A stretch of 64,000 nt of DNA from Candidatus Omnitrophota bacterium (GCA_041649175.1 JBAZNR010000001.1:847497-911496); one strand, 5' to 3'. Positions 12,190-28,309 are shown, numbered from the stretch's first letter. The notes: generated from the sequence alone by a model not told the origin. Translations and numbers: made by a program.

Positions 12190-12196
12190 AACATCC

Positions 12197-13894
12197 TCAC
12201 ATATTTTCGTATTCTGGGCCATCGCCGCCATAGGGCGTTGTCCAGGTAACATTGCACATTGGGTCTACAATATCGCACGTTTTACAATGCACGCAATTTG
12301 ATGAGTGAAGTTTTAATCCTTTTTTTCCTGTTTTAGCGTCGGCGGAAATTTCAAAAACCTGCGCGGGACAATATCGCTGGCAGGGAGCGTGAAAATCCTC
12401 AATACATGTTTCGCAGCTTTTGGCGCTGGGAACAACGATGTGGCTGGGTTGTTCTTCGTCGTGTTTTGTGCCAGAAAAAAAGATATCTGTTTCCTTATCA
12501 AAGGTCAGTTTTTTATCAAAGATCAGAGCCTCTTTATTTCTCTCTAAGAATGTTTTTCCCTTAAATTCTTTAACCGGCTGATAATGTTTGTAATCTTCTT
12601 CTATTTTTAGCCGTCCGCTAAACGATAGCCCGCGTCCGCCGGTTAGAATCTGTGTTCCAAATTGCAACATTCCTAAAAATAAATTAGTTTTGAAGGCTTG
12701 GCGGAAATTTCTCACCACATAAAGCTCTTTAAAGGACTGGCTTTTTTTGAATAATTCTTCGTAAAGGCTTAGTTGCCGGGAAGAGGTATCGTTTTTCTTG
12801 ACGGCCTCAAAAGCGGTTTTGGCCGCCATCATTCCGGATTGAATGGCTAAATGAATTCCTTTTAAGCTCGGCATAGCCAGAAAGCCGGCCGAATCTCCGA
12901 CGATCAGGGCATTGTCATGATAAAGCTTCGGCATGGAGAAAAATCCGCCTTCGGGAATTGTTTTAGCGCCGTAACGTAAAAGCTTTCCTTTTTCTATAAG
13001 CTTGGAAACAAATGGATGTTTTTTGTAAACCTGAAAAGCGTGGTGTGTGTCAAAGGTAGTGTCTTTAGAATCGAGCCCGACCACTAAGCCGATGGCCACA
13101 AGGTTTTTGCTTAAAGCGTAAATAAAACCGCCGCCGAATTGATCAAATTTTAACGGGAAACCGAGCGTGTGAGCGATGTAACCTACGGGAAGTACTCCTT
13201 CCGGGATCTCCCAGATTTCTTTGACACCTAAAGAATAAACTTGCGGATTGCGATCTTTATCTAAGTCAAATTTCTTAATTAGTGTTTTTGTTAAGCTTCC
13301 GCGCGTGCCTTCGGCGAAAATGGTAATCTTAGCCCGAATATCCGTAGCGGGCTGGTAATTTTCCATTGGCGTTCCGTGAGCATCGATACCGGAAGCTCCG
13401 GTGCGCACACCGGACACTTTGCCATTTTCATAAAGAATTTCATGTCCGTTAAAACCGGAGAAGACCTGAATACCTTTTTTCTCAGCGATCTCAGAAAGCC
13501 AGCGTACGATTTTTCCTAAAGAAGCAATATAGTTTCCCTTATTTCCCATATAAGGCGGGTGAAAAGGCAGGGCAAAAGACTTATTTTTTGTAAAAAATTG
13601 AACGTCTTCTTTAAGGACCGGGGTTTCAAACGGGATGTCTTTTTCTTGAATGTCCGGCAAAAGCTCGCGAAGCCCAACGGGGTTAATGACAGCCCCCGAA
13701 AGGGTGTGATTTCCCATAGCATTGGCTTTTTCTAAGAGAAGAATACGAGGAGAAAGCTTGGCTGGGACGGACTTTTCGTTTTCCGCGGATTCATTATGCT
13801 TTTTAACAAGATCAGCGAGGTGAATAGCCGTAGACAATCCGGCAGGCCCGCCGCCAATGATCAAAATATCAGTTTCAATAACAGGATTTTTCAT
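12197..13894 (-). CDS. Electron-transferring-flavoprotein:quinone oxidoreductase (ETF-QO / FixC-FixX-like) with C-terminal 4Fe-4S ferredoxin domain
   Basis: 565 aa. FAD motif ILIIGGGPAGLSTA; C-terminal cysteine cluster CETC...CPAQVF...CVHCKTCDIVDP. Sits directly upstream of etfBA on the same strand. Confidence 0.88.
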   Translation of the reverse strand: MKNPVIETDILIIGGGPAGLSTAIHLADLVKKHNESAENEKSVPAKLSPRILLLEKANAMGNHTLSGAVINPVGLRELLPDIQEKDIPFETPVLKEDVQFFTKNKSFALPFHPPYMGNKGNYIASLGKIVRWLSEIAEKKGIQVFSGFNGHEILYENGKVSGVRTGASGIDAHGTPMENYQPATDIRAKITIFAEGTRGSLTKTLIKKFDLDKDRNPQVYSLGVKEIWEIPEGVLPVGYIAHTLGFPLKFDQFGGGFIYALSKNLVAIGLVVGLDSKDTTFDTHHAFQVYKKHPFVSKLIEKGKLLRYGAKTIPEGGFFSMPKLYHDNALIVGDSAGFLAMPSLKGIHLAIQSGMMAAKTAFEAVKKNDTSSRQLSLYEELFKKSQSFKELYVVRNFRQAFKTNLFLGMLQFGTQILTGGRGLSFSGRLKIEEDYKHYQPVKEFKGKTFLERNKEALIFDKKLTFDKETDIFFSGTKHDEEQPSHIVVPSAKSCETCIEDFHAPCQRYCPAQVFEISADAKTGKKGLKLHSSNCVHCKTCDIVDPMCNVTWTTPYGGDGPEYENM

Positions 13895-15006: not shown

Positions 15007-15399
15007 GGGGGTGAAATGGTCTCGACTTGAGTTCGACGCTATTTAGGTGGCATGCCGGGGAAGCTTGGTCGGCCCCGATATCAATCCAAGCACACATAAA
15101 CGCAAATAACGACGCGTTCATTGCAGAGGCCGAGGCTATCGCCAACGGCGCTGCAACAGTTGCCGTCTAATAACACGGCACCTTCTTATCTTACTTCGCC
15201 TGCGGGTGGGTAAGAAGCCGATAGCAGGATAGTGGTTGTTTACGCTTTTTAAATAACCATGAAATTCTAAGAAGCTAGTTCTGCCGACATTTGTTTGTTT
15301 GCAGGGAAGCGGAATGAAGTTTCAAAAAACAAAATAAGCATGTAGAGGCCTTTATGGTGTAATTCAAGGACCGGGGTTCGATTCCCCGCACCTCCACCA
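15007..15399 (+). ncRNA. ssrA: tmRNA (SsrA), transfer-messenger RNA
   Basis: 5' GGGGGUG pairs with 3' CACCUCC-A-CCA to form the tRNA-like acceptor stem. The 3' T-arm is GGACCGGGGUUCGAUUCCCCG. An internal tag reading frame (...GCAAAUAACGACGCG...GUUGCCGUC UAAUAA, peptide ending ...AATVAV) closes with tandem stops. smpB lies 5 kb away. Confidence 0.9.
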
Positions 15400-15830: not shown

Positions 15831-18146
15831 ATGAAAACCAGACCGTTTTTCATTCCAAAAGAATGGCTGTCAAGGACCGCAATCCTTGCTGTTGTGTACT
15901 GCATTGTGGCTTGCGCGAGCCTATCGCTGGCTCTTCCCAAAACAAATGTCTCGCCTGTTTGGCCTCCCTCGGGTATTGCTTTTGCGGCTATTTTGCTTTT
16001 TGGGTACCGCATCTGGCCCGGTATCGCGTTAGGATCGTTCCTTGCGAATGTGATCACTTTCGTTGCTAATGGAACGACGAGCGTGCCGCTGGCTATTACT
16101 GCTTCTTTTTTTATCGGGATCGGGAATGCTTTAGAAGCATTATCGGGCATGGTGCTTTTAAAGTTTTTTCTTGGTTCTCAGAATCCTCTTAGCTGCAGTA
16201 AAAATGTTCTTAAGTTTATTTTTGTCGCACTTTTGGCGCCTATTGTAAGTTGTACGATCGGGCCAACTGTTATCTGCCTTTTAAAAATAGTTCCTTGGGA
16301 TATTTATTTAACGATCTGGCATACATGGTGGTCGGGCGATGCCACCGGGATCTTGATCTTTACTCCTATTTTACTTACCTGGTATAAAGATTCCGGAGAA
16401 GAGTGGACGATAACGCAGTTCGTTCAATCCATAACTTCACTGGCGCTTTTGTTTGTTGTCAGCCTCTTGATATTTGGAGGGAAACCGCAGCTAAGGGCGA
16501 TCTATTCTTCTTTTACCTTTATTCTCATACCGATCATTGTATGGACGGCATTTCGATTTGGGCAAAGAGGCGTGGCGCTATCTATGCTTGTTATTCTGGG
16601 AACAGCCATCTGGAAGACAGTCCATGGATTTGGCCCTTTTGCCGTTGGGTCAATGAATGAATCGCTGGTCCTCTTGCAATCTTTCATAGGTGTTGTCGCT
16701 GTTACGGGATTAATCCTGGCTGCATTGCTTGCGGATCGCCGTAACGCGGAAGAGATCTCAAGGCAATTAGCCGCTATTGTGGATTCTTCCGATGATGCCA
16801 TTATCGGCAAAACGTTAAACGGCAATATCATCAGTTGGAATAAGGGCGCTGAACAGCTTTATGGTTTTAAATCCGAAGAAGTTTTAGGCCAATTCATAGG
16901 TATTCTTACGCCGGATGGAAAATTAGATGAGGCCTCTGAGATTTTGAATCATATCAGCCGAGGAGATAAGGTAGATCATTATGTAACGCAGCGCAAGTGT
17001 AAAGATGGAAAGATCATTTATGTCTCCTTAACGATCTCGCCGGTTTTTAACGCGGCCGGAAAGCTTATTGGCGCGTCATCGATCGCGCGAGATGTTACGG
17101 ATAGAATTACGGCAGACAATAATCTAAAAATCCTAAAAAATCAACTGGAGTTTGAGAAAACCAAGCTAGAAGAAGTTTTAAATATCGAAGAAGGCCTTAA
17201 TACGATCATCAATTCAGAAAAATTAATTGATTTTATTGTTTTAAAAACAGCGCAAGTTTTAGACGCTGAGCGATGTTCCTTGATGCTGATTGATGAACAT
17301 GCCCAAGAGTTGTGCATTAAAGGGCATAGGGACTTGGGAGAGAATATTGTTAAGAGAAATCGTTTAAAGGTTGGAATGCCTATTGCGGGCCAAGTGGCTC
17401 AAGACGGGGAACCTATCCTGGTTACTGATATTGAATCGGATAGCCGTTTTGCCAGAAAAAACAGGGCTTCCTGCAAAAGCAAATCATTTTTAATCGCTCC
17501 CATCAAGTTAGATCGTCATGTGATGGGAGTGATCAATGTGACCGATAAAAATTCCCTTGGCAAAGATGGCGTATTCTCTGAAATAGATCTAAAAATTCTT
17601 TGCATGATCAGCCGTCAAGTCGCTGTCGCTATTGAGAATGCCAAGCTTTATCGAGAATTAAATTATCTCACAGTCACTGACCCGATGACAAATATGTATA
17701 ATTATCGTTATTTTACGAAAAGTTTAGACCATGAAATCATGCGGCTTAAACGCCACCCAGGGTCATTATGCCTGCTGATGATGGATGTTGATAATTTCAA
17801 AGTTTATAACGATACATTTGGCCATCAAGAAGGGGATAAATTGCTTAGAACAATCGGACAGGCTCTTGCTAAGACATTAAGAGATACAGATGTGGCATGC
17901 CGTTATGCGGGTGATGAGTTTGTGGCCATTTTGCCTCATACAGCTATTTCTCAGGCAAAAATTGTTGCGGAGAAAATCAAAAGAAAAATAGAGAGCATTT
18001 CTTCTAAGGAAAAAATAACTCTTAGCATTGGCATTGCCAATTATACAGACCCTTCGGACAGATATGACCTGATCTTAAAAGCGGACACCGCCTTATATGC
18101 CGCTAAGAAAAACGGTAAAAATAAAGTTCATGCCCACCATGAATAA
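15831..18146 (+). CDS. Membrane sensor diguanylate cyclase: MASE1 - PAS - GAF - GGDEF (motif variant AGDEF)
   Basis: 771 aa. The N-terminal about 300-aa polytopic MASE1-like domain carries the VWPPSGIAFAAILLFGYRIWPGI signature. A PAS domain (...IIGKTLNGNIISWNKGAEQLYGF...) and a GAF domain follow. The GGDEF domain has DVDNFKVYNDTFGHQEGD, an I-site-like RDTD and an active-site motif RYAGDEF. Confidence 0.85.
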   Translation: MKTRPFFIPKEWLSRTAILAVVYCIVACASLSLALPKTNVSPVWPPSGIAFAAILLFGYRIWPGIALGSFLANVITFVANGTTSVPLAITASFFIGIGNALEALSGMVLLKFFLGSQNPLSCSKNVLKFIFVALLAPIVSCTIGPTVICLLKIVPWDIYLTIWHTWWSGDATGILIFTPILLTWYKDSGEEWTITQFVQSITSLALLFVVSLLIFGGKPQLRAIYSSFTFILIPIIVWTAFRFGQRGVALSMLVILGTAIWKTVHGFGPFAVGSMNESLVLLQSFIGVVAVTGLILAALLADRRNAEEISRQLAAIVDSSDDAIIGKTLNGNIISWNKGAEQLYGFKSEEVLGQFIGILTPDGKLDEASEILNHISRGDKVDHYVTQRKCKDGKIIYVSLTISPVFNAAGKLIGASSIARDVTDRITADNNLKILKNQLEFEKTKLEEVLNIEEGLNTIINSEKLIDFIVLKTAQVLDAERCSLMLIDEHAQELCIKGHRDLGENIVKRNRLKVGMPIAGQVAQDGEPILVTDIESDSRFARKNRASCKSKSFLIAPIKLDRHVMGVINVTDKNSLGKDGVFSEIDLKILCMISRQVAVAIENAKLYRELNYLTVTDPMTNMYNYRYFTKSLDHEIMRLKRHPGSLCLLMMDVDNFKVYNDTFGHQEGDKLLRTIGQALAKTLRDTDVACRYAGDEFVAILPHTAISQAKIVAEKIKRKIESISSKEKITLSIGIANYTDPSDRYDLILKADTALYAAKKNGKNKVHAHHE

Positions 18147-18199
18147 GTGATAAAACCTGGTTTTAAGATCGGGGAAGTCGGGCGTTACTAAAAAAAATC

Positions 18200-18228
18200 T
18201 TGACACATAAAATAAAATCGGTATTATA
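18200..18228 (+). promoter_or_regulatory. sigma70-type promoter TTGACA-16-TATTAT in the GGDEF 3' intergenic region
   Basis: TTGACA at 18200-18205 and TATTAT at 18222-18227. Followed about 60 nt later by a terminator-like hairpin. Confidence 0.4.
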
Positions 18229-18287
18229 AACCGTATATAAGTACTCAGTTGACGTATTTAAACCAGCGGTCAGCGATCTTGAATCCA

Positions 18288-18322
18288 GAGCCCACACTTT
18301 AGAAAATGTTTGGGCTTTTTTT
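18288..18322 (+). terminator. Terminator-like hairpin with 7-T run
   Basis: AGCCCACAC-tttagaaaatg-TTTGGGCT followed by TTTTTTT. Shares the 13-mer AATCCAGAGCCCA (18282-18294) with the hairpin at 18627. Confidence 0.5.
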
Positions 18323-18354
18323 AATAATAAGGTGATAGTCTTTACAGCGATCCA

Positions 18355-18585
18355 ATGAAAGAAAAAACCATAGAAAGAAACGGAGAAAAGATCATCGAGG
18401 TCCGCTCGGATGGCGGGAAGCTCCTTTTTATCAAAACAAAAACGGGATATGAAATGAAGTGTCCCCGGACCAAGACGATCTGCTTGGTCAAATATGAAGA
18501 AATGCTGAAAGATTGCGTGAAATGTTTAGAAGAAAATGTTGGTAGGGAAGATTTGCTGAGTTTTATCGAGAAGGATCATAAGTAG
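18355..18585 (+). CDS. Small hypothetical protein with a Cys4 (CX6C...CX2C) arrangement
   Basis: 76 aa. MKEKTIERNGEKIIEV...KCPRTKTICLVKYEEMLKDCVKCLEE. Poor Shine-Dalgarno sequence. Flanked by two related hairpin elements. Coding status uncertain. Confidence 0.35.
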   Translation: MKEKTIERNGEKIIEVRSDGGKLLFIKTKTGYEMKCPRTKTICLVKYEEMLKDCVKCLEENVGREDLLSFIEKDHK

Positions 18586-18632
18586 ACGTACGTTGATTTA
18601 AAGTTTGTTAGCGGCCGGAGATTTTAAATCCA

Positions 18633-18674
18633 GAGCCCATTTCAAATCATGATTTGAAATGGGCTCCTTGTTTT
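18633..18674 (+). terminator. Strong intrinsic terminator (perfect 17-bp palindrome plus T-run)
   Basis: GAGCCCATTTCAAATCA|TGATTTGAAATGGGCTC followed by CTTGTTTT. Preceded by the same 13-mer AATCCAGAGCCCA as at 18282. Confidence 0.7.
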
Positions 18675-18712
18675 AGAAAATTTTATCAATCACGATTAAG
18701 AGCGGAGGAAAA

Positions 18713-20092
18713 ATGAAAGTATTGCTTAGAAGTGTTTGCGTAGTGCTTTTTTTGACAATTTTTCTATCGTGGCCTGTCGGAGCCGAAACAATAGAAGACA
18801 TTAAAGTGATGATGGATCAGATGAAAACAGATTATGAAACACGCATCAAAGAATTAGAAGGGAAAGTTGAGGCGCTGGGTGTTCAACAAAAAAAGGATAG
18901 CGCCAAGATCAGTGAAGTCGCAACAAAGCACGAAGAACAAGTTGCTCAAATAGAGCAAAAAATCGAAAACACAGCGCTGGATGTTGAATACGTAGGCCGC
19001 GATAAAGCTCCGGTTGGTCGAGGTGGCCTTCTGGTAAAAAATCCTTTTGGTTTTGGAAATGTGTCAGTGGGCGGCTACGTGGATCTGGAGTATGGTGATT
19101 TTGAAAATACCAATTCTGCTTTTACTCAACATCGCTGGGTTATTAATATTGGCGCATTTCCGCACGAGCGTTTACGCTTTAACTCGGAACTTGAAATCGA
19201 ATATGGCGGCCCTAACGTGCCCAATGCGGACGGAGAAGTTAAGGTGGAGCAAGCTTATGTGGATTATATGATCTCTAATCCGATCAATTTAAGGGCCGGC
19301 GCTATTTTAGTTCCGTTCGGCAGGTATAATCTTTATCATGATTCTGATCTGCAAAATTTGACCGATCGTCCGATCATGGCCAAAGATATTATTCCAACGA
19401 CGTGGACCGAAGCCGGAGCGGGGATTTTTGGCCAATTTAATCCTGTCTTTGGAACGTATGAAGACCTGGATCTGAAATATGAACTTTACGTAGTAAATGG
19501 TTTGGATGCAGGATTTTCAGATACCGGATTAGGCGGCGGCCGCCCGGGTTTAAAGGCGGACAATAATGACGACAAATCGGTCGTCGGCCGTTTGGCCGTA
19601 AGTCCTTTTCTCAATCAAGAATTTGGTGTTAGCGGCTACTGGGGAGAATACAATACGACCAATGATGATATCGCTGGGGTTGGATTAGATGCGCTAACGA
19701 CATTTGGGCCGTTTGAACTGATCAATGAGTATGCCTATTTCAGTGTGGAAGAATCTGATAATGTTGATGTGGCTAATTTCTTTCAAGGTGCCTACAGCCA
19801 ATTGAACTATCATTTTTGGCCGAAATTCTTGGACCATTCATTCTTGGGACGAGGATTTCAAGATCCTAAGCTGACATTAGTCGGCCGTTATGATTGGGTT
19901 CTTATCGGGGATGATACCGATAGCTCATCTTCGGATAATAATGAAGAGACTCGTTGGACGATGGGCATTAATTATCGGCCCATTGATAATTTTGTATTTA
20001 AACTGGAATATCAATGGAATCAAACGACGGACGAGGCTTTGGAGCGCGGAGATAATAACGGGTTTCTTACTTCAGTGGCGATTGGATTCTAG
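18713..20092 (+). CDS. Putative outer-membrane beta-barrel porin (OprO/P-like) with N-terminal coiled-coil
   Basis: 459 aa. Signal peptide (...SWPVGA|ETIED), about 70 aa of heptad-like coiled coil, then alternating-hydrophobic beta-strand-rich sequence ending in ...SVAIGF (C-terminal Phe typical of OMPs). Good Shine-Dalgarno sequence GGAGGAAAAATG. Confidence 0.5.
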   Translation: MKVLLRSVCVVLFLTIFLSWPVGAETIEDIKVMMDQMKTDYETRIKELEGKVEALGVQQKKDSAKISEVATKHEEQVAQIEQKIENTALDVEYVGRDKAPVGRGGLLVKNPFGFGNVSVGGYVDLEYGDFENTNSAFTQHRWVINIGAFPHERLRFNSELEIEYGGPNVPNADGEVKVEQAYVDYMISNPINLRAGAILVPFGRYNLYHDSDLQNLTDRPIMAKDIIPTTWTEAGAGIFGQFNPVFGTYEDLDLKYELYVVNGLDAGFSDTGLGGGRPGLKADNNDDKSVVGRLAVSPFLNQEFGVSGYWGEYNTTNDDIAGVGLDALTTFGPFELINEYAYFSVEESDNVDVANFFQGAYSQLNYHFWPKFLDHSFLGRGFQDPKLTLVGRYDWVLIGDDTDSSSSDNNEETRWTMGINYRPIDNFVFKLEYQWNQTTDEALERGDNNGFLTSVAIGF

Positions 20093-20583
20093 TGGTTATC
20101 CCTCGGCAATTTAAAACGATCTCTTTTCAGGCTCTTTGTGTTCCGGCCATTGTTCTTGTGGTCGGGGCGCAGGGACTTGCCGCGGTCTATCTATCTATTG
20201 AGGAAGCGCAGCAAGCGATTTTCCCGGGAGAAACCTTTACCGTGGTTGAGCTTAATAAAAAACCGAAAATTTGGCGCGCGAGCCAAGGCGGGTTTTTCAT
20301 CATCGATAAAGTGATCGGAAAACATGAATGGATCACCTATGCGTTAGGCATAAATCCGGACGGAAGCATTCGTCAAATTGAGATCATGGAATACAGGGAA
20401 GCGTATGGCTTTGAAGTCTGTCAGAAAAAATGGCGAAAACAATTTATCGGAAAAACAAACACAGCGGCTCTAAAACTTAATGCGGATATCAAAAACATTA
20501 GCGGAGCAACATTATCCTGCCGCCACGTAACGGATGGCGTCAAAGACCTCATGGAGCTTTATGAAACTGTCCTTAAGAAATGA
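20092..20583 (+). CDS. FMN-binding-domain protein (FMN_bind, flavinylation substrate) with N-terminal signal/anchor
   Basis: 163 aa. N-terminal hydrophobic segment. C-terminal ...NISGATLSCRHV matches the [S/T]GAT flavinylation motif of NqrC/RnfG-type FMN_bind domains. GTG start overlaps the porin stop (TAGTG). Confidence 0.65.
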   Translation: MVIPRQFKTISFQALCVPAIVLVVGAQGLAAVYLSIEEAQQAIFPGETFTVVELNKKPKIWRASQGGFFIIDKVIGKHEWITYALGINPDGSIRQIEIMEYREAYGFEVCQKKWRKQFIGKTNTAALKLNADIKNISGATLSCRHVTDGVKDLMELYETVLKK

Positions 20584-21466
20584 GATCCGGCGCTGCCGTC
20601 CTTTGCTAGGGACGTTTGTGGAAATAACGGTAGAAAATGACGGGGCCGAAAAAGCGCAAAAGGCGATTGACCACGCTTTTTCGGCCCTTGAACGCATTCA
20701 TAAGCTCATGAGTTTCCATGCTGCTGACAGCGAAGTTTCGAAGCTTAATCGCTTGGCTTTTGATCAACCTGTTCGTGTCAGCCTGCCAACATATAATGTT
20801 CTTAAACAGGCTAAAAAAATCTATCAGCTTACCAAAGGTATTTTTGATATTGCTATTGCGCCGGAATTAATGCGTTGGAAATTTTTGCCGTGCCATTCAT
20901 TTCTTAAGAAACGTTCGAGATATTCCGGCAGTACGCGGGACATCAAACTTTTTCCGAACAGATCTGTTCGTTTCTTGCGTCCTTTGCAAATAGATTTAGG
21001 CGGCATTGCGAAAGGATTTGCCGTTGATGAAGCCGTGAGAGTTTTAAAAGAAAATGGCATCAAGAGCGGCTTGGTCAACGCGGGAGGAGATCTGCGTTGT
21101 TTTGGCGAGCAGTCACATTCCATTTGGATCCGTCATCCCAAAAACCATGATCAATTTATTTCTTTTCCTGCCGCCCAAAATCTTTCTCTCGCTACTTCGG
21201 CTAATTCTTATCAGGGGCGATGGAAAAAAACGGGATGCGTACACGTTGATGGACAAAGCCGCCAGCCGTTATTTCGCTCCTTTAGTGTTTCGGTATACGC
21301 TGGTTCATGCCTTATCGCTGACGCGTTGACCAAGGTTGTCCTTGCTATCGGGGAAAGGTCCAATCCTCTTCTGGAGAAGTTAAATGCCGCGGCTTTTATC
21401 GTTCAGGCGGATGACAAAATATTATGTTACAATAAAGAAACTTATGAAAAATTATATTCGTTTTAG
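20561..21466 (+). CDS. apbE: FAD:protein FMN transferase (ApbE family)
   Basis: About 301 aa. Conserved ApbE motifs LGTFVEI, GIFDIAIAPEL, DLGGIAKGFAVDEA and NAGGD. Start trimmed to the ATG at 20561, which overlaps the preceding gene by 23 nt. No obvious signal peptide. Confidence 0.85.
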   Translation: MKLSLRNEIRRCRPLLGTFVEITVENDGAEKAQKAIDHAFSALERIHKLMSFHAADSEVSKLNRLAFDQPVRVSLPTYNVLKQAKKIYQLTKGIFDIAIAPELMRWKFLPCHSFLKKRSRYSGSTRDIKLFPNRSVRFLRPLQIDLGGIAKGFAVDEAVRVLKENGIKSGLVNAGGDLRCFGEQSHSIWIRHPKNHDQFISFPAAQNLSLATSANSYQGRWKKTGCVHVDGQSRQPLFRSFSVSVYAGSCLIADALTKVVLAIGERSNPLLEKLNAAAFIVQADDKILCYNKETYEKLYSF

Positions 21467-21893
21467 CCCTAATTTAAGAAAATGGTTTTACGGCATATTC
21501 GGCCTATTATTTCTTTCCGGTTTTTTATGGATTGTGGTGCACAATTTTCTCGCCGGAGCTGATGATTTTGATGCGCCGCAAAGTTTTTTTAAAACCTGGC
21601 TTCTTAAGATTCACGGCGCCGGCGCAATGGCTTCTTTAGTCATATTCGGTGTCTTAATTCCGTCTCATATGCGCCGTGGTTGGCAACAAAATCGAAACAG
21701 AACGACCGCTGTTGTGATGATCCTAGCGTGCTTTCTATTAATTGTCAGCGGATACGCATTGTATTATTGCGGCAGTGAAGAATTGCGCTTGTTCGTTAGC
21801 AGTTTTCACTCTTGGGTGGGATGTGTATTGCCGCTTTTGCTCATCTGGCATATTGCCAGGGGGCGTAAAAGCAACTCTGCGCCGCGCGCGTGA
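21444..21893 (+). CDS. Small 4-TM histidine-rich membrane protein (DUF4405 / cytochrome-b-like candidate)
   Basis: Four predicted TM helices with conserved-looking His residues (VVHNF, KIHGAG, PSHMRRG, IWHIARG). Overlaps the end of apbE. Start choice uncertain (alternatives 21384 or 21411). Confidence 0.45.
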   Translation: MKNYIRFSPNLRKWFYGIFGLLFLSGFLWIVVHNFLAGADDFDAPQSFFKTWLLKIHGAGAMASLVIFGVLIPSHMRRGWQQNRNRTTAVVMILACFLLIVSGYALYYCGSEELRLFVSSFHSWVGCVLPLLLIWHIARGRKSNSAPRA

Positions 21894-21954
21894 GCGAAAA
21901 TCAATGAATATTCAATCTCTCCTGATCGCCTTCCGCTTCTTTGTACATTAAAAA

Positions 21955-21982
21955 TTGTAAATCTGAAATGTTTTGATATAAT
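21955..21982 (+). promoter_or_regulatory. sigma70-type promoter TTGTAA-16-TATAAT upstream of the otsA leader
   Basis: TTGTAA at 21955-21960 and TATAAT at 21977-21982. About 125 nt upstream of the otsA ATG, with two hairpins in between. Confidence 0.4.
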
Positions 21983-22047
21983 AAACGAGCAATTTAAAAA
22001 ATTTCACGGGTTCGGAAGAATTATTCTTTCGAAGGATTTTGATGGTC

Positions 22048-22089
22048 GGGCCGCCATCTGATAAACAATCAGATGGCGGCCCGTTTTTT
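22048..22089 (+). terminator. Intrinsic terminator hairpin (14-bp stem plus T6) located 18 nt upstream of the otsA Shine-Dalgarno sequence
   Basis: GGGCCGCCATCTGA-taaacaa-TCAGATGGCGGCCC-G-TTTTTT, followed by AGGAG and ATG at 22107. Confidence 0.65.
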
Positions 22090-22106
22090 AAAATAGGAGT
22101 TAAATA

Positions 22107-24353
22107 ATGAAAATAACTTTAAGGCTTATTTTTTCTTTGATCTTCATTGTGGCTATCGTTGCGTTTTCTTTTTCATTTTGGCAAGCACGCCAAGAAGAGG
22201 AGCGCCTAAAAAGCGAACTGGAGAGAAGAGCTAATATAGTTGCCGACAGCTTAAAAATGTCAGTTGAGCCGTTGCTGCTCATGGATGACCAGAAGCATCT
22301 TCATCGCATTGTTGATAAGTTTTCTAACAGAGAGAGGCTTGTTGGCATTGCTATCCACGATGTCCAGGAAAATCTCATTTTAGCTTCAGCCGATCTTCAG
22401 GCGCAATTGCAAAGAAATCCCAAAGTCATTGCGCCTAATATCCAAGAAGTTGAGAGATCGAACACCGAACGTGGCAAATTCATTAATTTTGGAAAACAGC
22501 AGTTGCACGCTTATTCGGTTCCGCTATTAGCAAATGAAAAAACCAGCCATGTGCTGACCATTTTTCATGACGCGGCCTATATCCAGGACCGGGTGGAGAG
22601 AATTTGGGTCAATAGTTTTTGGAGAGCTTTGATACAAGCTTTTCTGATCTCCCTTGCGACCATGATCCTTGTTTACCTTAATATCATGGCTCCGATTAAA
22701 AAAACAACCGAATGGATAAAGAAGATCAGGAAGGGGGAATCTCCGGAAAAGCTAGATCTTAAAGGACAACAACTTTTGGGGCCCTTGGCAAAAGAGATCA
22801 CCAAAATGGCTAAGAGTTTAGAGGGGGCTAGGCTTTCGGCGGAAGAAGAAGCGCGGTTGCGCCACACCACAGAATCTCTTTGGACACCAGAACGGTTAAA
22901 GGAATTTGTAAAAGATAAGTTGCAGGGACGGCCGCTTTTTGTGGTTTCAAACCGTGAGCCGTATATGCACATCAAAAAAGGAAAAGAGATCGGATACATT
23001 GTTCCGGCTAGCGGGCTTGTGACGGCGATCGAGCCGGTGTTAAAGGCCTGCGGGGGTACTTGGATCGCTCAGGGGAGCGGTGATGCCGATCGTGAGATGG
23101 TGGATAAAAATGATAAATTAAGAGTTCCTCCGGAAGAGCCGCAATATGTATTAAGGCGAATTTGGATCGAAAAAGAACTAGAAGACGGATTTTATTCCGG
23201 ATTTTCCAACGAAGGATTGTGGCCTCTTTGTCATATTGCGCATACTCGGCCCATTTTCAGAGAAAAAGATTGGTTGGCTTATATGGCGGTCAACGAACAA
23301 TTTGCTTCGGCCGTTATTAAGGAATTGGAAGGAATTCCCGAGCCTAATGTGCTTATTCAAGATTATCATTTTGCTTTGCTTCCCGGAATGATCAAGGCCC
23401 AGCGCCCGGACGCGCGAGTAGCTATTTTTTGGCATATTCCGTGGCCCAATCCGGAATCGTTCGGTATTTGCCCTTGGCAAAAAGAAATTTTACAGGGAAT
23501 GTTGGGCGCGGACATTGTTGGTTTTCACACCCAATTTCACTGTAATAATTTCGCGGAAACAGTAGACCGGTTTTTGGAATCTCGTATTGACTACGAACAT
23601 TTTACGGTTAATCGGGAGGGACATACGTCCTGGATCAAACCTTTCCCTATCAGCATTGATTCTAATTTAGCCGGCAATACTTCTCTGGAGATCAAAGAAA
23701 CAAAAGAAAGCCTCTTACGGAAATATAATATTCAAGCGGATTATATGGGAGTAGGCGTGGACCGTTTGGATTATACCAAAGGAATTGTTGAGAGGTTTCG
23801 TGCTGTTGAAAGTTTCTTGGAAAAAAATCCGCAATATGTCGGAAAGTTTACTTTTGTAGAGCTGGGAGCTCCTAGCCGGACGATGATCGCTAAGTATAAG
23901 GAGTTTGTGGATGATGTTATTCAGGTTACCGAAAAGATCAACGCGCGGTTTAGAACGAAAACATGGCAGCCGATCTTATTTTTAATGAAGCATCATAGTC
24001 ATGCGGAGATCTTACCGTTTTACAGAGCGGCCGATGTGTGTTTGGTAACTTCTTTGCATGACGGGATGAATTTAGTTGCTAAAGAATTCGTGTCTGCTCG
24101 CGATGATGAAAAGGGTGTTTTAGTTTTAAGCCAGTTTACCGGAGCGGCACGTGAATTGCGGGATGCCCTCATTGTTAATCCTTATGATATCGGACAAACT
24201 GCTGAGGCTATCAAAGTCGCTTTAGAAATGCCGGCATCAGAGCAGAAGGAAAGAATGGAGAGCATGAGAGGATTGCTTAAAGATCATAATATTTATCGTT
24301 GGGCCAGCGCGCTAGTCGGAGAGCTTGCCCAAGTGAGGTTGAACAAAACTTAA
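22107..24353 (+). CDS. otsA: Trehalose-6-phosphate synthase (GT20, OtsA) fused to an N-terminal TM - periplasmic sensor - TM - HAMP module
   Basis: 748 aa. Residues 1-270 carry TM1 ([19 protein letters not shown]), an about 145-aa extracytoplasmic domain, TM2, and a HAMP-like amphipathic linker ([16 protein letters not shown]...[14 protein letters not shown]). Residues 270-748 are a complete GT20 domain (FVVSNREPY..., GGLVTAIEP, ...[11 protein letters not shown]...). Confidence 0.85.
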
Positions 24354-24359
24354 AAAAAT

Positions 24360-25190
24360 ATGGTGAATTCTCAAAGAAGCCGAAAAAATTTCCTGGAGTA
24401 TCAGGATAATTTCAAAGACCTGTTTTGCAAAAGCGATCTCATGCTTTTTTTAGATTTTGACGGAACCCTTGCTGCTATTGTCGGCCATTACAAAAATGCC
24501 AGGATCCTTCAAAAAAGTAAAATGCTCTTGGAGCAAATAGCTAAAAGTTCTCAGTGTTATGTGGCGATCGTAAGCGGCCGGGCATTGCTTGATGTTAAAA
24601 AACGTGTTGGCTTGAAGAATGTCATATATGCAGGAAATCATGGTTTGGAAGTCGCGGGCCCCGGCCTCAAGCGCACATTATTTGTTAAGACGGATGTAAA
24701 GAAAGTATTAAGAAAAATAAAGACGGACCTGACAAAAAGTATCGGCAGAACAAAAGGTATTCTCATTGAAGATAAAACATTAACGCTTAGCGTTCATTAC
24801 CGTCGGGTTAGCCGTGAGGACCTGACTTTGTTTAAACAGATATTCTGGAAAAATGTTCGGCCCTATCTTAAAAGCCGGGCCATTGAGGTTCATGAAGGAA
24901 AGAAAGTTCTTGAGATCAAACCGATGGCTAAGTGGAACAAGGGCAGTATCGTTTTATGGCTTATCGGCCGTTTACAAAAAAATATCCGTCGCCGGAAATT
25001 CTTTCCTATTTTTATTGGTGATGATGCGACCGACGAAACTGCCTTTGCCGCTTTAAGAGATAAAGGGCTTTGTATCCGTGTCGGGCGCAGCAAGGCGTCA
25101 GCGGCGCAGTATCGTTTAAACAGCATTGATCACGTAGCGCAATTTTTAAAGATCATTTTAGATTCTACGAGCAGGCATACTCTCAAGTAA
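24360..25190 (+). CDS. otsB: Trehalose-6-phosphate phosphatase (HAD superfamily, OtsB)
   Basis: 276 aa. HAD motif I FLDFDGTLA, motif III/IV ...IGDDATDE. Directly downstream of otsA. Confidence 0.85.
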   Translation: MVNSQRSRKNFLEYQDNFKDLFCKSDLMLFLDFDGTLAAIVGHYKNARILQKSKMLLEQIAKSSQCYVAIVSGRALLDVKKRVGLKNVIYAGNHGLEVAGPGLKRTLFVKTDVKKVLRKIKTDLTKSIGRTKGILIEDKTLTLSVHYRRVSREDLTLFKQIFWKNVRPYLKSRAIEVHEGKKVLEIKPMAKWNKGSIVLWLIGRLQKNIRRRKFFPIFIGDDATDETAFAALRDKGLCIRVGRSKASAAQYRLNSIDHVAQFLKIILDSTSRHTLK

Positions 25191-25240
25191 GGAGAAAGGC
25201 TTCTTTACTTGTCAGAAAATAAAACTTTGGGGGTGTTAGC

Positions 25241-27064
25241 ATGAACTATGCTGTAATCGGAAATTGTACGAGTGCTGCCTTGGTCAGCCCGGAATGTTCG
25301 ATCGATTGGCTGTGTCTGCCGTTTTTTGACTCACCGTCATTATTTGGCCGCCTTTTAGATGATCAAAAGGGAGGATACTTTCGTATTTGGGCGGAAGATA
25401 TCTTGGATGTAAAGCAGCAGTATGTGCATCGTTCTCCAATTTTGAAAACAAAATTCACGACAAAAAGCGGGATTTTTGAAGTGGCAGACTATATGCCTCG
25501 TTTTTTGGCGCATGACGGCGAAGTGATGTGCCCTCCAGAAATTCATCGCAATATCCATTTGCTTGAGGGCAATCCGCGCTTGATCGCCGAATTAAAGCCG
25601 TGCCCTAATTATGGGCTGGCGCCGGGAAGTTTTCTTGCGTCCCCAGATCACCTTAAGATCAATTCCACAAAAGGCGAGTATAACAGTTTTTATCTATATT
25701 CAAATTTAGATTTTGAAAAAATTTTGCAGGGAAAACCAATCGAGCTAAAGGCATCCTCGTATTTCGTGCTTTCCTATCATGAAAAATTAATACCCGTAAC
25801 GCAGGAACGGATCTATTTGGAATATGAGCGGACAAAAAGTTATTGGATGGACTGGGCTTATCGCGCTAAAGCTCCGGAGAAATACCGCGAGATCGTGCTT
25901 CGCTCGATTATTACTCTTAAGCTGCTGATGTTCCAAAGAACAGGGGCTTTTGTTGCGGCTCCGACTACATCATTGCCGGAGATCAAAGGCGGGACAAGGA
26001 ATTGGGATTATCGGTTTTGCTGGGTGCGGGACGCGAGTATGATCATTGATCTTTTTGCCCGCATCGGGCATGTTATTGCGTCGGAGAATTTCATCAAGTT
26101 CATTTTAGGAAGAATGTTATTAAAAAATGAAAACATCTCTGTTATGTACGGGATCAACGGTGAGCGTGATATTCGGGAACAAACACTTGATCATTTAAGC
26201 GGCCATGAAGGCTCCAGCCCGGTTAGGATCGGTAATGCGGCGCATCAACAGCGGCAAAATGATGTTTACGGCGAACTGATCGAAGCCATTTATTCGTATT
26301 ACATTATTAACGCTAGAAATCAGAAGAATTTTGATGAAGAACTTTGGACTGTTGTCCGTTCTTTAGCGAACCGTGCTATTGAAACATGGCAAGAGCCGGA
26401 TTGCGGTATTTGGGAACGCCGAGGGCCGATGCAGCATTTTGTTCATTCAAAAATGATGAACTGGGTGGCGCTGGACAGGGCTGTAAAGATCAGCCGGTTT
26501 ATCGGTAAAGAAAAAAATGTAAAGAGGTATTTAAAGGTTGCGGATGAAATTAAAAAAGATGTTTTAAAAAATGGCTGGGATCCGGAATTGAACAGTTTTG
26601 TCATGTTCTACGGCTCTAAAGACCTTGATGCGTCAAATCTTTTAATGCTGCATTACGGATTTTTAGACATCGCTGATCCGCGGATCGTTGGAACTGTTGA
26701 GGCGGCGTATCATAAACTTTTACGCGATGGATTTGTTATGCGCTATACAGCCGAAGACGAATTTGGCGTTCCTCAAAATGCGTTCATCGTTTGTACATTT
26801 TGGCTGATCGATGCGCTTTATCTGATCGGCCGAGAACAAGAAGCGCGGGAAATGTTCCATCGGGTGATAGGCTGTGCGAATAAATTTGGGCTTTTGTCTG
26901 AAACCATTGAACCTAAGACCGGTATGTTGAGAGGTAATTTCCCTCAGGGATATTCGCATCTGGCGTTGATCCAGACGGCGTTTCTTTTAGAAACAAATTA
27001 TCAGTGGAATGATGAAAACCGGCCTGTTCCTCCCAGTGATGCCGGCAGTAGCGAGAAAAATTGA
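25241..27064 (+). CDS. Glycoside hydrolase family 15 protein (glucoamylase / trehalase-type)
   Basis: 607 aa. GH15 signature ...NWDYRFCWVRDAS... and (alpha/alpha)6-barrel-like C-terminal region. Its position after otsAB suggests a trehalase role. Confidence 0.8.
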   Translation: MNYAVIGNCTSAALVSPECSIDWLCLPFFDSPSLFGRLLDDQKGGYFRIWAEDILDVKQQYVHRSPILKTKFTTKSGIFEVADYMPRFLAHDGEVMCPPEIHRNIHLLEGNPRLIAELKPCPNYGLAPGSFLASPDHLKINSTKGEYNSFYLYSNLDFEKILQGKPIELKASSYFVLSYHEKLIPVTQERIYLEYERTKSYWMDWAYRAKAPEKYREIVLRSIITLKLLMFQRTGAFVAAPTTSLPEIKGGTRNWDYRFCWVRDASMIIDLFARIGHVIASENFIKFILGRMLLKNENISVMYGINGERDIREQTLDHLSGHEGSSPVRIGNAAHQQRQNDVYGELIEAIYSYYIINARNQKNFDEELWTVVRSLANRAIETWQEPDCGIWERRGPMQHFVHSKMMNWVALDRAVKISRFIGKEKNVKRYLKVADEIKKDVLKNGWDPELNSFVMFYGSKDLDASNLLMLHYGFLDIADPRIVGTVEAAYHKLLRDGFVMRYTAEDEFGVPQNAFIVCTFWLIDALYLIGREQEAREMFHRVIGCANKFGLLSETIEPKTGMLRGNFPQGYSHLALIQTAFLLETNYQWNDENRPVPPSDAGSSEKN

Positions 27065-27226
27065 TGAGGCTAAGCGGCTGGATATTGATGATCTTAAGTT
27101 GGACGCTTATTATTGGTATGGCGACATTCTGTTTTCGGAAAATATTCCAGAAAGATAAAGTAGACTGATTATAAATCTCCCAAAGTGTTCTTGAGAACAG
27201 GGAGTTAAAAAATAAAAAGGAGCAGT

Positions 27227-28309
27227 GTGATGGTTTTGGTTTTTTGTTTGCTTTTAATTGCGGGAATTATCGGAGGGCAGCTTTTTGATGTATCAGCATC
27301 TAAAGACGTATTGTCTTTCATTACATCGGTCTGCTTGGCTTATATCATGATCGAAGTGGGGCTCGAATTCTCCGTTGATAAAAGAAAAATAAGAAGCTAT
27401 GAATGGGATGCGTGCGTTGCATTTATTGCGGCCGCTCTTCCTACTCTTTTATGGTTTTTATATTTTAGCTTTGTGATGCAGCATCCTTGGCGTCCGTCGA
27501 TGGTTGCCGGGCTTTCTGCGGCTCCAACATCCGCTGGAGTCCTTTTCTCGATGTTGTTGGCCGCAGGATTGGGGGCAACATGGGTTTTTCAAAAAGCCCG
27601 GACATTGGCGGTGTTAGACGATCTAGCGACGATCTTATTGCTGACACCCTTAGGGATCATTATTCATGGATTTGAGATCAAGTCTATTATCGTTCTTGCC
27701 TTGATCGGATTATTTTTGTTCGCTTCTTTTCGGTGGCAAAACACAATTCTATGGCCCACGGGGGAAAAATGGCTTTTATTGTACGGATTTGTTTTAACAG
27801 CCATCGTCTTTTTTGCTAAAGAGACAACGAATATACATCTCGAGGTCCTTATTCCGGCCTTTATGTGGGGCTGCCTTGTTCATTTGCAGAAGAAACATCA
27901 CACGGAAAAATCTCCGCCACACAATATTTCTTTGGATTCCGCCGTTAAGGGGATTTTTATGATCCTCGTTGGGTTTTCTTTTCCGAGAATTGAGATCGGA
28001 GCCGTTCCTTGGGGCATGACGGTTGCTCATGTTGTCGCGCTTACCATATTATCCAATATAGGAAAATGTTTTTCCGCGTTTTGTTATCGTCGAGAAGCCT
28101 CTTTAAAAGAACGACTGGCTTTAAGTGTTGCGATGTTCCCGCGAGGCGAAGTAGGAGCCGCGGTTTTATTGATCGGCCTTGGATATGGTTTTGGCGGCTA
28201 TGTGAGCTCTTTGGCGCTTTTAAGTTTGGCACTTAATCTTGTTCTAACCGGCGTTTTTATCGGTGTTGTTATGCATCTTTTGCGAAAAGAACCAGGAACA
28301 TCCGTTTGA
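27227..28309 (+). CDS. Polytopic membrane protein, cation:proton antiporter (CPA/Kef-like) family candidate
   Basis: 360 aa, about 10 TM helices. A ...EVGLEFSVDKRK... segment resembles the conserved loop of Na+(K+)/H+ exchangers. Assignment by eye only. Confidence 0.4.
   Translation: MMVLVFCLLLIAGIIGGQLFDVSASKDVLSFITSVCLAYIMIEVGLEFSVDKRKIRSYEWDACVAFIAAALPTLLWFLYFSFVMQHPWRPSMVAGLSAAPTSAGVLFSMLLAAGLGATWVFQKARTLAVLDDLATILLLTPLGIIIHGFEIKSIIVLALIGLFLFASFRWQNTILWPTGEKWLLLYGFVLTAIVFFAKETTNIHLEVLIPAFMWGCLVHLQKKHHTEKSPPHNISLDSAVKGIFMILVGFSFPRIEIGAVPWGMTVAHVVALTILSNIGKCFSAFCYRREASLKERLALSVAMFPRGEVGAAVLLIGLGYGFGGYVSSLALLSLALNLVLTGVFIGVVMHLLRKEPGTSV

Follow-up and report, generated by a model that had tools for sequence, protein, structure and literature searches.

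What might a bacterium do with a porin, a flavoprotein, an enzyme of the kind that attaches flavin and a small membrane protein, all encoded in one tightly packed run of genes? The question is raised by a 64,000-nucleotide stretch of DNA, here called the window, from a metagenome-assembled genome (MAG) of Candidatus Omnitrophota (GCA_041649175.1, JBAZNR010000001.1:847497-911496). Four overlapping plus-strand open reading frames (ORFs) at positions 18713-21893 of the window encode, in this order, an outer-membrane porin, an FMN_bind protein, an ApbE-type FAD:protein FMN transferase and a four-transmembrane (4-TM) putative cytochrome b. We are fairly confident that they form a transmembrane electron-transfer unit that consists of a diheme cytochrome and an exported, flavinylated protein. 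On balance we also favour a more specific proposal, namely that the module is a periplasmic ferric reductase for iron assimilation, in which electrons would pass from the diheme cytochrome b to the flavinylated protein and then to Fe(III) admitted by the porin, with Fe(II) taken up thereafter.

An earlier note on this DNA, made from the sequence alone, had proposed a translationally coupled operon of four such genes, and both the composition and the tight coupling are borne out by the ORF listing and by the junctions as read from the sequence. The porin stop codon TAG (20090-20092) shares a base with the GTG start of the FMN_bind gene (20092), giving TAGTG, and the ApbE gene starts at ATG 20561, which produces a 23-nt overlap with the FMN_bind gene (end 20583). 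These two junctions are as the note described them, whereas the last overlap, which it had put at about 20 nt, is also 23 nt, with the cytochrome gene starting at ATG 21444 and the ApbE gene ending at 21466. Upstream in-frame ATG codons at 20534 (ApbE) and 21384 (cytochrome) were considered as alternative starts and rejected, as they find no support in the N termini of homologues and are not used by the NCBI gene models. The latter give 301 amino acids (aa) for ApbE and 149 aa for the cytochrome, in agreement with the chosen starts, and the last gene product is identical to NCBI protein MFA5059682.1 (WC676_03560).

The FMN_bind protein matches its Pfam family (PF04205) at 43.5 bits against a cut-off of 22, and NCBIfam profiles reveal a weak similarity to RnfG/NqrC. 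Its N-terminal region is positively charged and is followed by a hydrophobic core of 18-20 residues; a Sec-type N-terminal signal with small residues at -3 and -1 is found in 38 of 38 homologues, and the protein is predicted to be extracytosolic. A scan for the flavinylation motif [ST]GA[ST] covered five proteins of the locus (the products of the four genes and of a 76-aa ORF upstream) and returned a single match, SGAT at residues 137-140 of the FMN_bind protein; no second flavinylation site was found in the porin or in the cytochrome. The earlier note had pointed out this SGAT motif, and the Thr that ApbE would flavinylate is invariant in the homologues aligned. Across the 38 aligned homologues, residues D132, I133, N135, I136, G138, A139, T140, L141, S142 and H145 are invariant, within a conserved stretch that reads D-I-x-N-I-S-G-A-T-L-S-C-R-H from D132, and in an alignment with RnfG, Thr140 falls in the region of the flavinylated Thr. 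Covalent attachment of FMN to Thr140 is our prediction for this protein. Residues specific to the subfamily (H78, E79, E97, E103, C143 and H145) may make up a metal site next to the flavin. A word-indexed profile search for relatives returned at least 2434 clusters at E values up to 1e-5.

The third gene product is an unmistakable member of its family by score, matching Pfam PF02424 at 164.2 bits (cut-off 25.6) over profile positions 1-263 of 266. It aligns over its full length with Vibrio cholerae ApbE (6nxi) and retains the GGD and ADALT motifs as well as the His of the 'HxxDxxxxxP' stretch. We take this His to be catalytic and the Asp and Thr of ADALT to bind Mg.

The membrane protein encoded by the last gene has four segments that are hydrophobic on the Kyte-Doolittle scale. 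Lys and Arg residues are distributed 4/4/4 over the N terminus, loop 2 and the C terminus, and loops 1 and 3 are acidic, on which basis both termini are predicted to lie in the cytoplasm. Two His residues in TM2 (His57 and His75) and two in TM4 (His122 and His136) show at least 99% conservation across 143 diverse family members, as expected of a two-heme cytochrome and in agreement with the view of the earlier note that this is a His-rich 4-TM protein of cytochrome b-like type. Conserved to the same degree in these members are G26, G58, G69, G89, G103, G126, Y107, Y108 and R115; they include small residues on TM1 and TM3 (G26, G89 and G103) and the pairings H57-G58 and H122-x3-G126. A pair of His residues on helix 2, another pair on helix 4 and small residues on helices 1 and 3 constitute the core design of cytochromes b and b6. 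Two b hemes may accordingly be placed, as a putative assignment, between TM2 and TM4; the predicted topology would put His57 and His122 towards the periplasmic side of the membrane and His75 and His136 towards its cytoplasmic side.

Family assignment of this protein is less straightforward. An exhaustive profile search yielded 1450 cluster representatives at E values up to 1e-3 and 821 at E values up to 1e-10, with lengths mostly of 135-220 aa. Against Ni_hydr_CYTB (PF01292, cut-off 30.1) the 149-aa protein scores 29.4 bits and the 169-aa upstream-extended ORF 31.9 bits, a marginal Pfam match with an E value of 1.4e-07. The resemblance to DUF4405 (PF14358) that the earlier note had suggested does not hold, given a score of 15.1 bits (E = 0.035) below the cut-off of 26.7, the better match to Ni_hydr_CYTB and the presence of four rather than six TM segments. 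The same preference is seen across the family: of the 121 members compared, Ni_hydr_CYTB is matched by 65 and DUF4405 by 26 (best E = 2.7e-05) at E values up to 0.01. An AlphaFold2 (AF2) model with a predicted local distance difference test score (pLDDT) of 73 is a four-helix bundle whose best matches in the Protein Data Bank (PDB) are the HyaC cytochrome b (6g94_A, TM-score 0.54) and cytochrome b6, neither of them significant. When the family profile was compared with PDB chains at E values up to 10, no cytochrome b561-type chain was recovered, and the only hits were photosystem II CP43 chains, which are chance matches. We read the protein, from its sequence features, as representing a distinct small family in the two-heme cytochrome b superfamily and as a clean member of neither Pfam family.

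In FdnI and HyaC, TM1 and TM2 contribute one heme-ligating His each and TM4 two, whereas the window protein carries two on TM2 and two on TM4. It shares with the b561/Ni_hydr_CYTB proteins (HyaC, FdnI, CybB) a similar-sized four-helix TM bundle, its best Pfam match and its best, albeit non-significant, structural match; it differs in scoring at or just under the curated cut-off and in having a flavoprotein rather than a hydrogenase or formate dehydrogenase as partner. DUF4405 and FezC proteins, which are associated with flavinylation and with ferrosomes, have been shown experimentally to be heme b cytochromes encoded next to apbE, with six TM segments (Huang et al. 2024, PMC10979944). The window protein resembles them as a small His-rich membrane protein encoded next to apbE, with four conserved His placed for two b hemes, but its AF2 model and hydrophobic segments give four TM segments in place of the six described for DUF4405 (PMC10979944). 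Furthermore, DUF4405 clusters carry a flavinylated flavodoxin and a flavin transporter (PMC10979944), whereas the partners of the window cytochrome are the FMN_bind protein and an outer-membrane protein (OMP).

The porin is a family match to Porin_O_P (PF07396; 54.9 bits, cut-off 20.9, E = 1.1e-14), which answers the question of whether the first ORF belongs with these porins or with another OMP family, and a weak NCBIfam match to the LbtU siderophore porin is also seen. It is 78% identical to its orthologue in a second Omnitrophota locus (L001; related loci are denoted in this way throughout). The AF2 model, built from a 50-sequence alignment (pLDDT 78), comprises a signal-peptide helix, a long helix spanning residues 27-86 and about 18 strands, in keeping with the outer-membrane beta-barrel and N-terminal coiled-coil-like helix that the earlier note had described. 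Foldseek places OprP (2o4v, E = 2e-13) and OprO first among PDB matches to the model, followed by the stalked porin OmpM1. The window porin thus has the barrel fold and the Porin_O_P family membership of OprP/OprO, although its gene is associated with a flavoprotein gene and with feoAB, not with the Pho regulon; the predicted N-terminal helical stalk is shared with OmpM1-type porins, but it lacks the SLH domain.

To establish how widely the arrangement occurs, 105 loci were assembled from homologue look-ups and two collection scans, and the 93 with non-identical FMN_bind genes were counted; gene-order fractions are given only for loci in which enough sequence is present. An OMP gene precedes the FMN_bind gene in 59 of 63 loci, and is of the DUF6662 type (about 290 aa, unrelated to the Porin_O_P porin) in 46 and Porin_O_P-like in 13. 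ApbE follows the FMN_bind gene in at least 63 of 73 loci; several of the loci in which it seemed to be missing reflect only the overlap of open frames in high-GC DNA. The cytochrome gene lies within 1.8 kb of the FMN_bind gene in 51 of 53 loci. This conservation of the order OMP, FMN_bind, ApbE and cytochrome, which the earlier note had suggested examining and which recurs across about 90 non-identical loci, is far beyond chance. Named carriers are Omnitrophota, Verrucomicrobia, Ralstonia syzygii, Massilia rhizosphaerae, Herminiimonas, Burkholderiales and a Binatia MAG, and the module is also found in soil metagenomes.

An Omnitrophota variant (L104 5366-7922, L105 5349-10765) consists of a divergently transcribed gene for a DUF2231 membrane protein, a porin gene and an FMN_bind gene, without ApbE and without the 4-TM cytochrome; in L105 the porin and FMN_bind genes are followed by FeoA-FeoB. 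Despite conserved-looking His residues in DUF2231, homology of this protein to the cytochrome family was considered and discarded, as none was found.

These data bear on the suggestion of the earlier note that the four proteins together form an envelope-spanning redox conduit, in which electrons would pass from the inner-membrane cytochrome to the flavoprotein and then reach an extracellular acceptor by way of the outer-membrane barrel, either inside it or alongside it. It is true that the porin gene always adjoins the flavoprotein gene, often with an overlap, that the 60-residue periplasmic helical stalk could position a partner, and that flavinylated outer-membrane proteins (DUF3570) exist (PMC8238504). 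However, an OprP/OprO-like barrel of about 16-18 strands is too small to house a protein, the porin carries no [ST]GA[ST] motif, and in most relatives it is replaced by the DUF6662 OMP. The features of an MtrCAB-like conduit are likewise missing, in that the barrel is OprP-like and a protein of about 140 aa with a single flavin is the sole redox partner. Neither the ORF listing nor the domain search revealed a multiheme cytochrome gene within the module, no multiheme cytochrome or other extracellular redox protein occurs among the neighbours examined, and the neighbouring genes point to uptake rather than respiration. We consider a conduit of this kind highly improbable. OprP is a narrow anion channel. 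Given that the window porin forms an OprP-like narrow barrel, in whose place most relatives have a smaller OMP of unrelated type, it is better read, so far as its model allows, as a narrow substrate-specific channel than as an electron conduit or a sheath for a redox protein.

The neighbourhood of the module in other genomes suggests what that substrate may be. Neighbours were detected by BLAST with a few query proteins, so that the counts are lower bounds and are uncorrected for phylogeny. Iron genes (FeoAB, FTR1, Nramp, Fur, DtxR or ferritin) occur in 15 of the 43 loci with long flanks, where by our own estimate, likewise uncorrected for phylogeny, the chance of finding a single-copy gene within 16 kb of a random point is well under 1%. 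FeoA-FeoB lies directly downstream in five loci (L001, L004, L006, L007 and L008) and further downstream in L024, and the porin-FMN_bind pair remains beside FeoAB in the L105 variant that lacks ApbE and the cytochrome. DtxR-type repressor and ferritin genes are located upstream in L006 and L010, DtxR and Nramp genes upstream in L021, and a Fur gene directly upstream in L059. FTR1 follows the module in L006 and L010 and directly precedes it in L020, a cytochrome c-FTR1 fusion is found upstream in L057, and further loci contain BLAST-level FTR1 matches.

This last association is open to a reading with electrons flowing the other way, in which the flavoprotein and cytochrome b oxidize periplasmic Fe(II) and deliver the electrons to the quinone pool, either for import by FTR1 or for Fe(II) detoxification. 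FTR1 systems such as FtrABCD are thought to require an oxidizing partner and an electron sink, and FTR1 or its cytochrome c fusions directly adjoin the module in several loci. Clusters of P19/FTR1 with FMN_bind genes have also been noted previously (PMC8238504). However, FeoAB and Nramp, which transport reduced divalent ions, are as frequent as FTR1 among the neighbours. A low-potential flavin is, moreover, a poor oxidant of Fe(II), and we regard reversed flow as distinctly unlikely.

We return to the ferric reductase proposal, for which a mechanism can be outlined on the precedent that flavinylated proteins and heme membrane partners have been proposed as assimilatory iron reductases (PMC8238504). 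In the inner membrane, the 149-aa protein would hold its two b hemes between TM2 and TM4, with His57/His122 ligating the heme closer to the periplasm and His75/His136 the one closer to the cytoplasm, and would move electrons outward from the quinol pool or from a cytoplasmic reductant. The acceptor would be the exported FMN_bind protein, whose FMN would be attached covalently to Thr140 by the co-encoded ApbE. Once reduced, this flavoprotein would in turn reduce Fe(III) species entering the periplasm via the dedicated, presumably trimeric OprP-like porin. The Fe(II) so produced would be imported by transporters of the FeoB, FTR1 or Nramp type; these would have to be encoded elsewhere in the genome from which the window derives, and in many relatives their genes adjoin the module.

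Several observations weigh against this proposal. No electron donor is encoded in the module, and the transfer of electrons from quinol to FMN is thermodynamically uphill for a typical low-potential covalent FMN. The match of the cytochrome model to known cytochromes b is non-significant (E = 0.88), and heme binding is a prediction from His placement. ApbE has no export signal although its FMN_bind substrate is exported, and where flavinylation would take place is unexplained. No iron transporter or regulator genes reside near the module in the window, where the flanks hold a diguanylate cyclase gene and a trehalose operon; 24 of the 43 long-flank loci contain none of the iron-related families tested; and many soil loci sit between rpoC and rpsB, where the neighbours are uninformative. 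Finally, the upstream same-strand neighbour in Betaproteobacteria is a di-heme cytochrome c peroxidase/MauG-type gene (L016 3816-5252, L017 4033-5247, L018 3999-5222), because of which the acceptor may vary between lineages. A search for feoB elsewhere in the window gave only a weak GTPase-domain match near 54.2 kb, which was rejected. In favour of the proposal, the window encodes on the minus strand at 10240-13894 a fusion of electron-transfer flavoprotein (ETF) beta and alpha subunits (670 aa) and an ETF-quinone oxidoreductase, the presence of which indicates a membrane quinone pool.

Some of the same observations would be expected if the module were a general supply of electrons to the periplasm, with an acceptor that varies by lineage (a peroxidase, Fe(III), or other metals or oxidants) and that need not be iron in the Omnitrophota genome studied here. 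Such a role is consistent with the CCP_MauG gene for a di-heme peroxidase that immediately precedes the module in Ralstonia and Massilia, with the DUF2249/TusA and Fe-S assembly genes in L012 and with the many module loci without iron genes, the window among them, and known flavinylated systems use many acceptors (PMC8238504). Set against this, no other functional neighbours recur nearly as often as iron uptake and regulator genes, which occur in several unrelated lineages and involve three transporter families. A dedicated OMP gene is also nearly always present, which favours a substrate imported across the outer membrane over a resident periplasmic enzyme. We therefore hold a general electron supply to be rather unlikely, although it has a stronger claim than reversed flow. 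In the Ralstonia and Massilia loci the peroxidase gene hints at another or a further electron acceptor in Betaproteobacteria, and a TonB-dependent receptor gene is found downstream in L017.

The missing export signal of ApbE deserves closer consideration, as the earlier note had flagged it as a caveat, and the caveat is real. A hydrophobic segment that could serve as an N-terminal lipoprotein or Sec signal is absent in 16 of 16 loci checked, in all of which ApbE starts 10-25 residues ahead of a conserved RR[CA]RPLLGT motif. A signal hidden by a wrongly chosen start was considered and dismissed, since the frame in the window extends only 10 codons beyond the start and all 16 loci lack a hydrophobic stretch. 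Most characterized ApbE proteins carry an N-terminal lipoprotein or Sec signal, which does not, however, define the family. Cytosolic ApbE proteins exist, with cytosolic substrates (PMC12052999). The conserved mismatch between the locations of the enzyme and its substrate is the most unusual feature of the module.

One tentative explanation, possible but well short of our favoured view of the module as a whole, is that the signal-less ApbE flavinylates a Sec-targeted substrate in the cytoplasm, before or during export, and that together with the cytochrome and porin it defines an unrecognized, widespread class of ferric reductase linked to Feo and FTR1. A polypeptide with covalent FMN would then be threaded through SecYEG, and export of FAD to the periplasm would be bypassed. 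Export of a pre-folded flavoprotein by the Tat route was considered and set aside, as a twin-Arg motif is not conserved in the signal peptides of the 38 FMN_bind homologues.

Alternatively, this ApbE homologue may not be, or may not only be, a transferase, and might instead act as a cytoplasmic FAD-binding partner of the cytochrome that donates electrons to it or supplies or hydrolyses FAD, while an exported ApbE encoded elsewhere flavinylates the FMN_bind protein. The uniform absence of an export signal would fit such a role, as would the variants of the module that lack ApbE (L028, L082, L104 and L105), in which ApbE acting in trans must therefore suffice. To our knowledge, no role as a redox protein has been assigned to ApbE, and the transferase motifs, comprising the catalytic His and the Mg-binding Asp and Thr of ADALT, are retained. 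Some ApbE relatives are FAD pyrophosphatases (PMC4767422), but tight coupling to the substrate gene is the usual mark of a cognate transferase (PMC8238504). We judge this alternative very improbable, and continue to treat the window ApbE as the transferase for its neighbour.

The coordinates of the four genes and of the candidate regulatory features that surround them are collected in Table 1. Ahead of the porin gene lies a leader with a promoter-like site, a palindrome, a stem-loop, a small ORF and a hairpin, and because L001 shares this layout we include the small gene and the leader elements in the unit. Specifically, the small gene, promoter and palindrome probably belong to it, and the small gene would be co-transcribed with the four module genes. 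The earlier note mentioned neither these leader features nor the association of related loci with iron uptake genes.

Table 1 Predicted features of the module and its leader in the window
Feature	Position	Strand	Basis or remark
Sigma-70-type promoter-like site, TTGACA-16 nt-TATTAT	18200-18227	+	11 of 12 matches; best within 17900-22300
Palindromic operator-like site, AATAMGT-N8-12-ACKTAT	18237-18258		Just 3' of the -10 hexamer
Stem-loop and U7 tract (candidate attenuator or short-RNA 3' end)	18287-18322	+	Fold; between promoter and small ORF
76-aa protein with C36, C43, C54 and C57, no family match	18355-18585	+	70% identical over 60 aa to the same-position 76-aa ORF of L001
Perfect 17 + 17 nt hairpin	18633-18666	+	Between small ORF and porin gene; z-score -3.4
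Porin	18713-20092	+	Sec signal (residues 1-24), about 60-residue helical stalk and OprO/OprP-like beta-barrel
Exported FMN_bind protein, predicted ApbE substrate (Thr140)	20092-20583	+	FMN_bind, E = 5e-11
ApbE-type FAD:protein FMN transferase without signal peptide	20561-21466	+	ApbE, E = 5.7e-48
149-aa 4-TM putative diheme cytochrome b, N-in/C-in, His57/75/122/136	21444-21893	+	Topology, His conservation, AF2 four-helix bundle
Intrinsic terminator, first after the operon	22047-22083	+	16-bp stem with 11 GC pairs, T6

The site in the first row would function as a promoter, judging from its sequence, and comparable TTGACA promoters are present at the equivalent position in five related loci (L001, L007, L008, L009 and L011). 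The palindrome AATAMGT-N8-12-ACKTAT has one match in the 64-kb window, where 0.07 would be expected, and looks like the operator of a dimeric regulator. Matches are also found upstream of the module in L004 (4473-4495), L007 (4897-4918), L009 (5006-5028), L011 (784-806), L104 (5160-5182) and L105 (5222-5243), with an orientation that varies between loci. In L104 and L105 the palindrome lies past the 3' end of the DUF2231 gene, which is divergently oriented, and this placement is unexplained.

About 55 nt after the promoter, and ahead of the 76-aa ORF, the stem-loop and its U tract constitute an intrinsic terminator; the promoter and terminator together could produce a short RNA or form an attenuator system. 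An equivalent layout is seen in L001 at 3474-3511. The 30-nt 5' flank of this stem-loop recurs with 83% identity at 18610-18639. Indeed, stem-loop flanks share a 30-nt sequence, AGCGG.C...ATCCAGAGCCCA, in the window (18228-18322 and 18586-18680) and in L001 (3412-3511, 3760-3835 and 3855-3915). The possibility that ATCCAGAGCCCA is a dispersed genomic repeat was rejected, as its only exact copies are the two local ones. The perfect hairpin nearer to the porin gene has an equivalent in L001 at 3800-3833 with an identical GAGCCCATTTCA arm.

The 76-aa ORF, whose product is annotated by NCBI as a hypothetical protein and has no Pfam or NCBIfam match, is conserved between two Omnitrophota loci, in both of which it comes first in the module; other relatives carry a 49-aa DUF2292 gene in that position. 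With its four Cys residues arranged as C-x6-C ... C-x2-C, the protein could be a metal binder or a regulator. Neither the leader hairpins nor a conserved element of the related loci match an Rfam family. The latter, absent from the window, is an element of about 65 nt between the DUF2292 gene and the OMP gene in L007 (5107-5180), L008 (5068-5140), L011 (1056-1125) and L004 (4655-4725), and it contains two short hairpins, the second of which exhibits compensatory changes (CUGU/ACAG, CUGC/GCAG and UUGC/GCAA). It has no Rfam match at the gathering threshold or at E values up to 1, and is a candidate for an unclassified cis-regulatory RNA.

At the other end of the unit, no other strong terminator was found between 21893 and 22047, upstream of the one listed in Table 1. 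This terminator overlaps a match to the nhaA-I motif at 22008-22059 (RF03057, 50.2 bits, gathering score 37), which we take to be the reported Na+-sensing riboswitch, and it is likely also to be the expression platform of that riboswitch for the next operon. A promoter-like site is present at 21955-21982, and the genes at 22107-28309 encode an N-extended trehalose-6-phosphate synthase, a trehalose phosphatase, a GH15 trehalase-like enzyme and a Na+/H+ exchanger. Placed before a trehalose operon, nhaA-I would be a salt-sensing switch on osmoprotectant synthesis. A 1925-aa protein encoded at 28538-34315 has a C-terminal subtilase domain as its sole Pfam match. On the upstream side, the neighbour of the module is the diguanylate cyclase gene, which encodes a MASE1-PAS-GAF-GGDEF protein, and just upstream of it lies a full-length transfer-messenger RNA (tmRNA) gene (15007-15399, 167 bits).

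How does the module relate to systems already described? Meheust et al. (2021) defined five classes of membrane partner for flavinylated proteins (MsrQ-like, PepSY-like, NapH-like, DsbD and NQR/RNF-like), and assimilatory iron reduction is suggested for two of them, the MsrQ-like and PepSY-like systems, by ferrous-iron transporter genes nearby (PMC8238504). Those systems and the window module both combine, in one cluster, an ApbE gene, an exported FMN_bind substrate and a membrane electron carrier. They differ in that the membrane component of the window, a stand-alone protein of about 150 aa with four TM segments, is outside the five classes, and in that the module has a dedicated OMP gene and an ApbE without a signal peptide. 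The main text of that study names VIT1 and P19/FTR1, whereas relatives of the window module are linked to FeoAB, FTR1 and Nramp, and it makes no mention of FeoB, porins or b561-type partners (PMC8238504).

A second comparison is with FrcB of Bradyrhizobium and with FoxB/FsrB (PepSY_TM), which are diheme inner-membrane proteins with a four-TM bundle that reduce periplasmic ferric chelates, the Fe(II) being imported, for example, by FeoAB (PMC8891985, PMC10760861). As described, these proteins are solo or PepSY-bearing, and differ from the window module in having no flavinylated partner or ApbE. Full-text literature searches combining the components of the module found no paper. The combination of porin, flavoprotein, ApbE and small cytochrome has thus not been described before, and it is a variant of known flavinylation-associated electron transfer rather than a new principle.

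If our reading is correct, the small cytochrome would constitute a sixth membrane partner class for flavinylation-associated systems. The topological puzzle posed by ApbE and its substrate bears on how and where extracytosolic flavoproteins acquire their flavin. The module is widespread in lineages of soil and groundwater, and its culturable carriers, such as Massilia rhizosphaerae and Ralstonia syzygii, make it open to experiment. How Gram-negative bacteria supply Fe(II) to FeoB under ferric conditions is poorly understood, and a module that joins a porin for the substrate, a flavoprotein reductase in the periplasm and a minimal diheme carrier would be a compact and dedicated answer.

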